A stretch of DNA of 64,000 bases from Stegostoma tigrinum. Taxonomy: Eukaryota. Below are positions 1,051 to 63,945 of the stretch, piece after piece (positions within the stretch are counted from its first letter, which is position 1; the number at the start of each line of letters is the position of its first letter). The stretch lies in the NCBI RefSeq assembly GCF_030684315.1, contig NC_081380.1, positions 45,348,771 to 45,412,770 of the forward strand, read 5' to 3'. The position numbers and the translations under genes were made by a program. Under the pieces are notes generated by a model that was not told where the DNA came from, ran no database searches, and saw nothing but the letters and a program-made list of their open reading frames with translations.

Positions 1051-1432
1051 GTATGTTGCCTGCAGAGATCGATAACTCCATGATCACCCTGGAATGTGTG
1101 TGTGTATGTGTGTTCATTCATGATTTTAACTCCTGGGCCAGGTGTGGATGCCTGGAATAAAACATGGTGTATCTGTCAAGTTTGTGAAGGCACAAGAGTG
1201 TGCAGTGTGAACCCCGGAGAGCAGTGCTGGCTGATGATTGTGAGGTTGAAGGTAGAGTTAGATGTTACAGAATTCATAAAAACTGAAAGAACTGCAAATG
1301 CTGGAAATCAGGGACAATAAAACACAAATTACTGGAAAAGCTCAGCAGGTCTGTCTGCATCTGTGGAGAGAAACCAGAGTTAACCTTTTGGGTCCAGTGG
1401 CCATTTCTCAAAACTGATGGAAGCTAGGAAAA

Positions 1433-1629
1433 GAGGTAATGGGAACTGTAGATGCTGGAGATTCCAAGATAACAAAGTGTGGAGCTGGATGAACACAGCA
1501 GGCCCAGCAGCATCTCGGGAGCACAAAAGTTGACATTTCGGGCCTAGACCCTTCCGAAACGTCAGCTTTTGTGCTCCTGAGATGCTGCTTGGCCTGCTGT
1601 GTTCATCCAGCTCCACACTTTGTTACCTC
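1433..1629. mobile_element. Penelope-derived palindromic mini-element, nested in an older PLE terminus (about 1280-1775)
   Basis: Inverted arms; 14-bp direct repeat GGAAGCTAGGAAAA at 1419-1432 and 1630-1643. Confidence 0.85.
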
Positions 1630-1991
1630 GGAAGCTAGGAAAATGTTGGTTTTTGTGCAGAAGATGGGGGGTAAGGAATAAAAATGATAGGTGGAGACAG
1701 AACCCAAAGAGAGAAGGCTCCTTAGCTTACTTCCCCGTTCTACCTTCTGCATAAAAACCATCCTTCCTAGCACCAGCAGCAGAGGTAGGCGATACAGTGT
1801 GTGTAGGTGCCATACCCTGGTGAGAGACAGCATATGTGTGGGAGCTGTATCCTAGTGAGAGCGTGTGTATGTGCGTGTGTGAGAGAGCCGTACACTGGGG
1901 GGTGTGTGTGGGAGCCGTACCCCGGTGAGAGTCACTGTGGAGAGATATCCCTGTGATTACCAGGTTTGTTGTATCCTTTCTGGGTTTTCAG

Positions 1992-2147
1992 GAGCACAGT
2001 GAACGGAAGCAGCGAGTCCGATTCCAGCTGGAGATCTCCAGCAATCCTGAAGAGCAGAGGAATAGTATCCTGCACCTTCAGGATGCAGTGAGGGAGCATG
2101 TGACGCGGATCCGTCAACTCGAGAAACAAATCTACCTGATTATGAAG
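1992..2147 (+). CDS. BLTP2: BLTP2 exon ([14 protein letters not shown]...IYLIMK)
   Basis: ttttcag| acceptor, AAG|gtaaca donor, 156 nt, phase 0-0, continues the homologous peptide. Confidence 0.93.
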
Positions 2148-61234: not shown

Positions 61235-62520
61235 TTGATTGATTCATTGTCACATATGCCAAAATACAGTGAAAAGCTTGTTCACGAGCAGTACATGCAG
61301 ATCATCGTAAGCGAAGGATGTGCTGATCAATAAGACTTAGACAGAGGCATACACGTTACATTGCACAGGGTGCGCGCTAGACAAGATCAACATTAGCAAG
61401 ATCAGCATTATTTGAGGCTAGAGGGCCCATTCATTAGTCTGACAGTAGCCGAGAAGAAGCTGTTCCTGAATCTGCTCGTACATGTGTTCAGGTTTCTGTA
61501 TCTTCTGGCTGATGGAAAAGGTTACAGGAGGCGCAATGGGTCTTTGATGATGTTGGCTGCCTTTCTGTGGCAGCGAGCCGTGTAAATGGAGTCCATGGAT
61601 GGGAGGTTGGCTTCCATGATGGTCCGGCTGTCCACACCAGCTTCTGTAGTTTCTTATGGTCCTTGGCAGAGCAGTTGCCGTACTAGGCCGTTATGCACCC
61701 GGACAGAATGCTTTCAGTGGTGCATCCACAGAAGTTGGTGATGGACCTTATGGACGTGACAAACTTCCTGAGCTTCCTGAAGAAGAGGCAGTCCAGGACA
61801 GATTGTCAGTTATTATCACTCTGAGGAACTTGATGCTCTTCACCCTCTCAGTCTCAGCTCCATTGATGTAGATGGGGGCATGTTCTCCTCCTTTATATCT
61901 GAAGTTGATGTTCAGTTCTTTAGTTTTGCTGACATTGAGACACAGATTGTTCTCACTGTGCCACGTCACTAAGCCCTTCATCTCCCTTCTGTAGTTTGAC
62001 TCATCATTCTTAGATATCCATCCCACTACAGTGGTGTCATCAGCAATGTTGGAGATGGCGTTCATTCGGAATTTAGTAACACAGTCGTAGGTTTACAGGG
62101 AGTACAATATGGGGCTGAGGAAGCATCCCGGGGGGGGAGGTGTTCATGTGGTGAGTGTTATTGTGGAGGATCACGATTGCAGCCTATGGGTCAGAAAACT
62201 GAGGATCAAGTTGTAGAGGGTGGAGCTGAGACCAAGGTCACACAGTTTTGAGATCAGTCTGGAGGGGATAATGGTGTTGACGATAGAGCTGTAGTCGATG
62301 AGCAGGAGTCTGATGGAGGTGCCCTTGATGTCCAGATGTTCCAGGGATGCGTGCAGTGCTAGGGATATGGCACCCTGTGAGGACCTGTTACATCGGTAGG
62401 CAAATTATAGGGGATTGAGGAAAGTTGGGAGATGAGAGTTGATGTGGGCCATGACCAGCATCATAAAACACCTCATGATTAAAGTCGGAGCGACTGGGTG
62501 GTAGTCATTCAAGCACACTG
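61235..62520 (-). mobile_element. Rex1/Babar-like LINE fragment
   Basis: LNDYHPVA; ADDTTVVGWISKNDESNYRRE...LNVSKTKEL...ITDNLSWT. Confidence 0.78.
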
Positions 62521-63020
62521 TGTGTGTTTTCTGCAAGAGCACCTTGGCTAGTCCCACTCCCTTGCCCTTCCCCCACTGTGCTGCAGATCTTTTCTGATAC
62601 CCTGTGGGTACCCTTTTGAAAGTCCTGATTGAATCTGCCCCCACCACATTCTCAAGCAATGTATTCAGTGGCATAAAAAAGATTGTCCTCATGCCTCCTT
62701 TTTTTTACCTTAAATGTTGTCCCTACTTACTCTACAGACTGCTCATGATTTTGAACACCTTTATGAAATTTCCTCGCAGCCTTTTCTAAGGACAATAGCC
62801 CCAGCTTCTCTAATCTGTTTACTTCACTGAAGTCCCTCAGCCCTGATCACATCCTTGTAAATCTTTTCTGTGCCCTCTCTCATGCCTTCACATCTTTCCT
62901 GAATTGTGGTGTTTATATTCCAGTTGGGACTGAATCAGAGTTTTATAAATGTTTCTTATAGCTCCCCTGTAACTGTACTCCAGCTCCCACATAATGAAGC
63001 CAGGAATTTATTTGCTTTGG

Positions 63021-63945
63021 AGACCACTCTCTCCGCAACTCCCTTGTCCGCTCCACACTGCCCTCCAACCCCACCACACCTGGCACCTTCCCCTGCAACT
63101 GCAGGAAATGCTACACTTGCCCCCACACCTCCTCCCTCACCCCTATCCCAGGCCCCAAGATGACCTTCCATATTAAGCAGATGTTCACCTGCACATCTGC
63201 CAATGTGGTATATTGTATCCATTGCACCCAGTGTGGCTTCCTCTACATTGGGGAAACCAAGCGGAGGCTTGGGGACTGCTTTGCAGAACACCTCTGCTCG
63301 GTTCGCAATAAATAACTGCACCTCCCAGTCGCAAACCATTTCCACTCCCCCTCCCATTCTTTAGATGACATGTCCAACATGGGCCTCCTGCAGTGCCACA
63401 ATGATGCCACCCGAAGGTTGCAGGAACAGCAACTCATATTCCGCTTGGGAACCCTGCAGCCCAATAGTATCAATGTGGACTTCACCAGCTTCAAAATCTC
63501 CCCCTCCCCCACCGCATCCCACAACCAGCCCAGTTCTTCCCCTCCCCCCACTGCATCCCAAAACGAGCCCAGCCTGTCTCTGCCTCCCTAACCTGTTCTT
63601 CCTCTCGCCCATCCCTTCCTCCCACCTCAGCCGCACCTCCATTTCCTACCTACCACCTCATCCCACCTCCTTGACCTGTCCATCTTCCCTGGACTGACCT
63701 ATCCCCTCCCTACCTCCCCACCTATACTCTCCTCTCCACCTATCTTCTTTTCTCTCCATCTTCGGTCCGCCTCCCCCTCTCTCCCTATTTATTCCAGTTC
63801 CCTCTCCCCATCCCCCTCTCTGATGAAGGGTCTAGGCCCGAAACGTCAGCTTTTGTGCTCCTGAGATGCTGCTTGGCCTGCTGTGTTCATCCAGCCTCAC
63901 ATTTTATTATCTTGGAATTCTCCAGCATCTGCAGTTCCCATTATC
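63021..63945 (+). mobile_element. Penelope-like element 3' fragment, parent family of the mini-elements
   Basis: CNCRKCYTC linker, CTSANVVYCIHCTQCGFLYIGETKRRLGDCFAEH and EQQLIFRLGTLQPNSIN; pyrimidine-rich 3' UTR; ends in the mini-element consensus with core at 63820-63847. Confidence 0.88.

Follow-up and report, generated by a model that had tools for sequence, protein, structure and literature searches.

Short head-to-head pseudo-LTR insertions of a putative Neptune-type Penelope-like element in a shark genome

Endonuclease-positive (EN+) Penelope-like elements (PLEs) are the closest described relatives of the repeats considered here—a set of short insertions in 64,000 nucleotides of Stegostoma tigrinum (NCBI RefSeq assembly GCF_030684315.1, contig NC_081380.1, positions 45,348,771 to 45,412,770), hereafter the window, in which position 1 is the first letter. 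According to the papers describing them (PMC8557442, PMC3846280, PMC2377424), EN+ PLEs of the Neptune type combine a GIY-YIG endonuclease, a CX2-5CxxC linker, and a pseudo-long terminal repeat (pseudo-LTR) with a hammerhead ribozyme; they also display an inverted 5' copy, a tail of 30–40 bp at one end only, and a palindrome at the inverted junction. Their target-site duplications (TSDs) are said to be variable in length, which is set by second-strand cleavage after target-primed reverse transcription (TPRT) (PMC8557442), with rotifer examples of 8–10 bp (PMC3846280).

Four further systems invite comparison. The PAc protein of the Poseidon PLE from Anolis carolinensis (PMC11167929) belongs to another clade, but it cuts and extends both target strands, is predicted to be a dimer, and in vitro starts reverse transcription at two internal sites that bound the tail; it does not need hammerhead cleavage, as uncleaved RNA serves as template. 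TSD length, a head-to-head product, and a sharp 5' boundary do not appear in its main-text results. The hammerheads of metazoan PLEs (PMC4209133) have, as here, a minimal type I core with an extra base before helix II and a palindromic helix III; their helix I has 4–5 bp, whereas helix I of shark copies M and N (below) has 2 bp, like that of Drosophila virilis. In Schistosoma, opposite-strand hammerhead pairs lie 100–700 bp apart, and most motifs are single and ascribed to truncated PLEs; the main text of that paper contains no TSD or arm analysis and no shark. In L1 twin priming (PMC9148063), the second overhang primes internally on the RNA and an inverted segment results, much as in three of the shark inserts (E, L, and O, below); in contrast to L1, the shark inserts have no poly(A), both apparent priming sites are fixed, the arms mostly overlap almost fully, and the twin structure is seemingly the rule. 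Metazoan non-LTR retrozymes (PMC7761336; bioRxiv 10.64898/2026.07.22.740005) are likewise short and non-coding, with a type I hammerhead and kinship to PLE pseudo-LTRs, but they form head-to-tail tandems cut into circular monomers, whereas the shark inserts are scattered and head-to-head, with ends that do not fall at the cleavage site; the preprint deals with tandem retrozymes only.

Published work already covers inverted pseudo-LTRs and tails, solo pseudo-LTRs, minimal hammerheads in opposed orientation, and PLE insertions of very small size (median 128 bp in Chlamydomonas). A full-text literature search, with most subscription papers, Dfam, Repbase, and several supplements outside its scope, returned no report of this shark family, and none of a fixed PLE duplication length, of twin priming in PLEs, of a rule of one tail per insert, or of a 5' wall such as that described below. 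The element is of an ordinary kind; its insertion scars give an unusually clear, testable mechanism. Like EN+ PLEs, it has a pseudo-LTR with hammerhead, an inverted adjacent copy, and a tail of 33–34 nt on one arm (in nine of ten cases); unlike them, most of its copies consist of the terminal repeat alone, and the TSD is sharply 14 bp, so that the variable length stated for PLEs is not what this window displays. We think it probable that an autonomous Neptune-type PLE generated the inserts by twin TPRT, as solo pseudo-LTR products.

Arm geometry and target-site duplications

The repeat unit comprises the pseudo-LTR of a PLE and its 34-nt tail. A self-search of the window located the unit wherever the initial annotation of this DNA had placed it, and in a few additional places; it also bore out that annotation in identifying the unit with the 3' end of a PLE fragment at 63021..63951 (plus strand), which we call copy M and use as the coordinate reference for all arms. 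Copy M is 5'-truncated and consists, in order, of a zinc-knuckle linker, a GIY-YIG remnant, a pyrimidine-rich 3' untranslated region (UTR), the pseudo-LTR (63816..63911, plus strand), and the tail (63912..63951, plus strand); its flanking repeat is 10 bp if exact (63009/63953) and 13 bp with one mismatch. Short copies outnumber those bearing an open reading frame (ORF) by 13 to 2 in the window, the second of the latter being copy N (41894..42711, plus strand), an older fragment of ~790 bp with a 14-bp TSD that has one mismatch.

In each of the ten two-arm inserts (A, C, D, E, F, H, I, J, and the older L and O), the TSDs enclose a minus arm followed by a plus arm, which is a head-to-head arrangement. 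Their arms end on the 3' side at two sites only, 63908–63913 (site 1) and 63945–63951 (site 2), 33–34 nt apart and separated by the PLE tail—a key feature that the initial annotation overlooked. Exactly one arm is tailed in nine of the ten, neither arm in I, and two tails never occur; against independent choice this gives p = 0.011, or p = 0.035 (seven of eight) without L and O. The tailed arm of E, L, and O consists of nothing but the tail and stops at or near site 1.

On the 5' side, twenty arm starts fall at 63815–63820 (nine), 63825 (three), 63838–63868 (six), 63911 (one), and 63021 (one), so the previously proposed start of the unit, 2–4 nt before the hammerhead core, holds for some arms but not for the others. 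Of the 13 arms that reach 63825, 12 stop by 63815, within 11 nt; the stop rate at this 5' wall is 0.12 per nt versus 0.004 downstream, about thirty-fold. One arm each of A, E, and K stops at the equivalent of 63825, inside the minimal type I hammerhead core (63820..63847, plus strand) and just 5' of helix II, which is possibly an RNA-structure pause. The wall (63815–63821) falls on a pyrimidine run; we take this run to resemble a TCT-type initiator, a likeness that counts for little in pyrimidine-rich DNA.

The individual inserts vary on this plan, and no two junctions are alike. Insert H (36842..37094; apparent 15-bp TSD, 36842/37080) is a perfect head-to-head palindrome with a right-arm tail; both of its arms end at 63816, are joined flush, and carry a private G>T at 63875 found in no other copy. 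Insert C (17891..18143; 14-bp TSD, 17891/18130) is a near-perfect palindrome with a left-arm tail. Both arms of J (49739..49950; left-arm tail; 11-bp TSD, 49739/49940) carry A>G at 63909, a variant also seen in F, and J shares with D (21807..21963; left-arm tail, an internal deletion in each arm; 14-bp TSD, 21807/21950) the presence of 2–3 extra bases at the junction. Insert F (22903..23062) has lost its centre and has a right-arm tail; its terminal TSD bases fit the element ends too, so its 16 bp (22903/23047) are an apparent length. Both arms of the tailless I (39691..39822; 14-bp TSD, 39691/39809) end at site 1. Insert A (1419..1643; 14-bp TSD, 1419/1630) has a tailed minus arm and a plus arm to site 1; it sits inside an older copy of a second PLE family, a few bases upstream of that copy's hammerhead core, and both of its outer ends show the same 7 bases, which differ from the parent.

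A long site-1 arm is paired with a tail-only arm in E (22412..22562; 14-bp TSD, 22412/22549), and the older L (58847..58951; 14-bp TSD, 58847/58938) likewise joins a tail-only arm to a site-1 arm; in the older, diverged O (23147..23273; 9-bp TSD, one mismatch), whose arms were assigned by eye, ~30 nt of filler separate the two. Three inserts, all on the plus strand, have one arm: B (2755..2899; 10-bp TSD, 2755/2890) and G (24400..24545; 9-bp TSD, 24400/24537), both with tail and starting at the equivalents of 63820 and 63817, and K (56504..56627; 14-bp TSD, 56504/56614), with a site-1 arm from 63825 and 10 extra bases. These ten bases (56518–56527), flanked by the left TSD and the arm, match neither the target nor the element in any clear way and may be the remnant of a second arm. 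Copies C, G, H, and I are young, with 0–1 differences, and already short. The initial annotation had listed 11 inserts—all real, with flanking direct repeats that we found again at the same positions and lengths when taking the longest edge repeat of each insert, and with both orientations in eight—and had missed an older twelfth, L; its size range of about 100–230 bp was of the right order, the measured range being 96–225 bp.

Seven of 12 short inserts have a TSD of exactly 14 bp, in a range of 9–16 bp, and the nine two-arm inserts with exact repeats include six of 14 and one each of 15, 16, and 11 bp. With the post hoc choice of the mode uncorrected, seven of 12 gives P = 7e-4 for a share of 0.15 per length and P = 4e-3 for a share of 0.20. 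A true length of 14 bp with chance extension predicts 14, 15, and 16 bp at 53, 29, and 12%, which is near the 6, 1, and 1 among the nine two-arm inserts. In a chance control that masked tandem repeats, flanking repeats of at least 9 bp turned up in 43 of 2000 random intervals and those of at least 14 bp in 6 of 2000, compared with 12/12 and 9/12 of the inserts; real insertions were left unmasked, so this control overstates chance. Judged by their form, the repeats appear to be real target-site duplications. The 14 bp of copy N, together with 15-bp TSDs (one mismatch each) in two inserts of the second family, suggest that the stagger belongs to the PLE machinery, and the fixed-stagger endonuclease that the initial annotation had offered as one of two explanations draws support from copy N and from the seven exact 14-bp repeats.

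Parent element and public contigs

The same annotation had called fragment M GIY-YIG-coding. A Pfam search of the M protein fragment alone gave no match, and the assignment holds instead through its relatives: the stretch encoded by M is 88–89% identical to P0001 and P0002, proteins named from zebra shark and whale shark, and P0002 matches GIY-YIG PF01541 above the cut-off (23.2 vs 22.6 bits). The RVT_1 match of P0002 is weak, below the cut-off, and no reverse transcriptase (RT) was found within the window. A Cys pair between GIY and YIG is visible in the M translation, and a CX2-5CxxC linker lies upstream of the endonuclease in M and in 89 of 97 long relatives. This linker is assigned to both Neptune and Nematis (PMC8557442) and cannot tell the two apart; the designation Neptune-type is accordingly provisional, coming from linker and GIY-YIG homology rather than from an RT tree. 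The zebra shark protein record continues through the same 3' UTR into the repeat unit.

Contigs of four public runs were aligned to 62900–64000 (333,634 of them from run X3, for which some events went uncounted), and the statements that follow concern the best rows only. Among the top loose ends listed, those of X3 with unlike flanks (agreement 0.37–0.39) lie at 63819 (714 contigs), 63912 (658), and 63951 (446); the loose end at 63819 is also present in X5 (10 contigs) and in X14, from another organism (144). As these three breakpoints recur in contigs, the wall and both end sites belong to the family and are not peculiar to this window. Contig depth, when summed, is greater over the unit than over the body; it does not measure copy number and was not used as evidence. 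No empty-site joint for M was found among the contig rows listed. An assembly artefact was ruled out, as each site has a TSD of its own and independent contigs share these breakpoints. Pattern scans of metagenome contigs, viral contigs, and bacterial genomes returned nothing, and 0 of 6 candidates from a protein scan of viral contigs were confirmed.

Two further observations concern the unit itself. One frame is open, without an ATG, across the whole of 63818–63945; a comparison by eye with the N-termini of 16 of the 97 long relatives, whose identity to the shark protein is only ~50%, gave no match for this frame. Loose ends behind 63951 begin with the same 10 letters in contigs of X3 and X5, probably a continuation into the ORF.

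Candidate mechanisms of insertion

Twin TPRT would proceed in four steps. The PLE protein, probably as a dimer, would nick both target strands at the same time, about 14 nt apart and with 3' overhangs, as the TSDs suggest. Each 3'-OH would then prime a complementary DNA (cDNA) on one element RNA, usually one at site 1 and the other at site 2, so that one arm gets the tail. On the first pseudo-LTR of a transcript presumed to start at the wall, synthesis would run off at 63815–63820, like a strong-stop product, because initiation is internal, with only about 95–130 nt of RNA remaining to the 5' end; tandem transcripts alone would give rise to copies with an ORF, M and N among them. (The start site of Drosophila Penelope lies in this part of the element too, 46 bp upstream of an intron that ends against helix I.) The two cDNA ends would finally be joined head to head, and the junctions look accordingly, flush in H and with microhomology loss in others. 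The hammerhead would be carried along uncleaved; failure of the second cDNA would leave a single arm with a shorter TSD, and, as in L1 twin priming, a trailing enzyme that runs into the first cDNA would give E, L, and O. A pair of nicks at this spacing with 3' overhangs would yield two head-to-head cDNAs with a full duplication, as seen; copying that stops at the RNA 5' end would account both for the wall and for the surplus of short copies; and we count the private variant in both arms of H in favor of this model, as we do the double-strand cutting, predicted dimer, and paired start sites of PAc (PMC11167929).

That this PLE moreover inserts by twin priming as a rule, with a dimer nicking both strands at a fixed stagger of 14 nt and its two RT sites copying one RNA from the neighboring start sites, is a more tentative proposal, which we advance as possible rather than probable. 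If it is true, a single step explains why the pseudo-LTR is inverted, why the tail is one-sided, why solo hammerheads abound, and why tandem copies are needed, and the model of sequential nicking in PLEs is overturned.

Several points weigh against twin priming. The arms of A differ at 4–5 sites, two of them common to other copies, which argues for two templates or later conversion and not for one RNA; I breaks the one-tail rule, and the two-arm J has a TSD of only 11 bp. TSDs of at least 14 bp occur in two of five single-arm and eight of nine two-arm copies, a difference that is not significant (p = 0.095), and the TSD statistics cover one 64-kb window. No target consensus or motif is evident at the nick sites of the window inserts, including the ATT that PAc prefers for cleavage, and the start site of PAc is no different between strands, its events not being paired per molecule (PMC11167929). 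The RNA 5' end at 63816 is deduced from the arms rather than seen, and tail-only arms could also be obtained by one-sided palindrome deletion after insertion. Finally, X3 contigs contain tail-to-tail joints (63911/63912 to 63948/63950; 21, 33, and 22 contigs) that are absent from the window and are not predicted by the model; they could be tandem two-arm units or insertions into an existing copy at site 1.

Fold-back self-priming requires only one cDNA, primed from the first nick, which would fold over at the palindromic junction and serve as its own template before the endonuclease resolves the product at site 1, leaving a one-sided tail. The palindromic junctions of C and H and the variants common to both arms in H and J are what it predicts; self-priming has been proposed for such junctions (PMC3846280), and the tail has been attributed to endonuclease resolution (PMC8557442). 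We nevertheless consider it unlikely: the barely overlapping arms of E, L, and O are unobtainable without later deletion, the arms of A differ, and the two ends match the in vitro RT start sites of PAc (PMC11167929). Read-through copying of a palindromic master was tried and ruled out, as no insert has a common 5' flank and the junctions differ.

A non-autonomous family resembling short interspersed nuclear elements would keep the chemistry of twin TPRT but use another RNA, with short copies transcribed from the junction and mobilized in trans by the PLE protein. The 13-to-2 excess of short copies is in keeping with this, and the extra junction bases in J and D could stem from a palindromic master; pseudo-LTR sequences are enough for trans mobilization in a rotifer (PMC3846280), and non-autonomous Chlamys families are known. 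The idea is improbable here, as the short copies match M in sequence and lack any diagnostic feature that would set them apart, the junctions are all different and so exclude a single two-arm master copied whole, and a transcript through H is predicted to fold as a 92-bp hairpin.

The other explanation in the initial annotation, a retrozyme-like mobile RNA, would have a hammerhead-cleaved, circularized RNA monomer reverse-transcribed and inserted. The PLE origin, the minimal hammerhead, and the inverted terminal segment that the annotation described were upheld. The core is intact in M, C, G, and H, with the NUH triplet present and cleavage predicted at 63847/63848; over 15 copies helix II has 90% of cells paired, and the palindromic minimal helix III is paired in 14. 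Additionally, non-LTR retrozymes derive from PLE pseudo-LTRs and are present in the one cartilaginous fish sampled (bioRxiv 10.64898/2026.07.22.740005), and the unit start and tail end have a 4-nt pyrimidine run in common. Against this, none of the 20 arms starts at 63848, the arms run unbroken through the predicted cleavage site, and head-to-tail copies occur neither in the window nor among the contig joints listed (367 others are unlisted), which together point to uncleaved RNA as the template; the 5' boundary lies ~30 nt upstream of the cleavage site and is therefore not set by the ribozyme. Helix I has only 2 bp in M and N (4 bp in the second family; one change between the families is two-sided), and the core is predicted to fold onto the strand across the cleavage site. 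The unit folds no more favorably than shuffled sequences (z 0.5), covariation is weak (26 of 500 shuffles equally high), and an Rfam search gave no hammerhead match, only sub-threshold microRNA matches to palindromes. The junction of C lengthens helix I of the plus-strand hammerhead to 7 bp. On balance we regard a retrozyme as very improbable. Later reduction of full-length elements by recombination or deletion between pseudo-LTRs—proposed for rotifer solo pseudo-LTRs without TSD (PMC3846280), and imaginable for a second-family copy (24155–25355) whose body between inverted pseudo-LTRs could be lost—is scarcely credible, since the young copies are already short, the single arms B and G join the target directly at the wall with TSDs intact, and most copies would have to lose the body precisely.

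Other window features and implications

The second, older PLE pseudo-LTR family has its own minimal hammerhead, and its copies lie at 1276–1420, 2454–2645, 15023–15115, 22702–22806, 24155–25355, 25845–25950, 38855–39060, and 60671–60780. Two of these are two-armed, two have the 15-bp repeats with one mismatch, and that at 24155–25355 comprises an inverted pseudo-LTR, a GIY-YIG remnant, and a pseudo-LTR. Elsewhere in the window, Pfam identifies an EMC6 gene (16993–17421, minus strand), and candidate exons of an FGGY-type sugar kinase, offered as a lead only, lie at 36610–36800 and 41247–41672 (plus strand); we presume the kinase to be SHPK. Insert H is directly downstream of one of these exons. 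A run of 153 N (21457–21609) interrupts a CA-rich repeat.

The origin of the inverted terminal repeats and the one-sided tail of PLEs is an open question, and the second-strand steps are unvalidated for the only full-length protein studied in vitro. The many short, young, easily scored insertions described here offer a natural record of how nicks are spaced, how start sites pair, and where the RNA 5' end lies, and twin TPRT makes a precise prediction for the existing in vitro PLE assay. Under this model, dispersed minimal hammerheads would become by-products of insertion and not separate mobile RNAs. The head-to-head copies are near-perfect hairpins, of 92 bp in H, and could yield double-stranded RNA and local instability in shark genomes.

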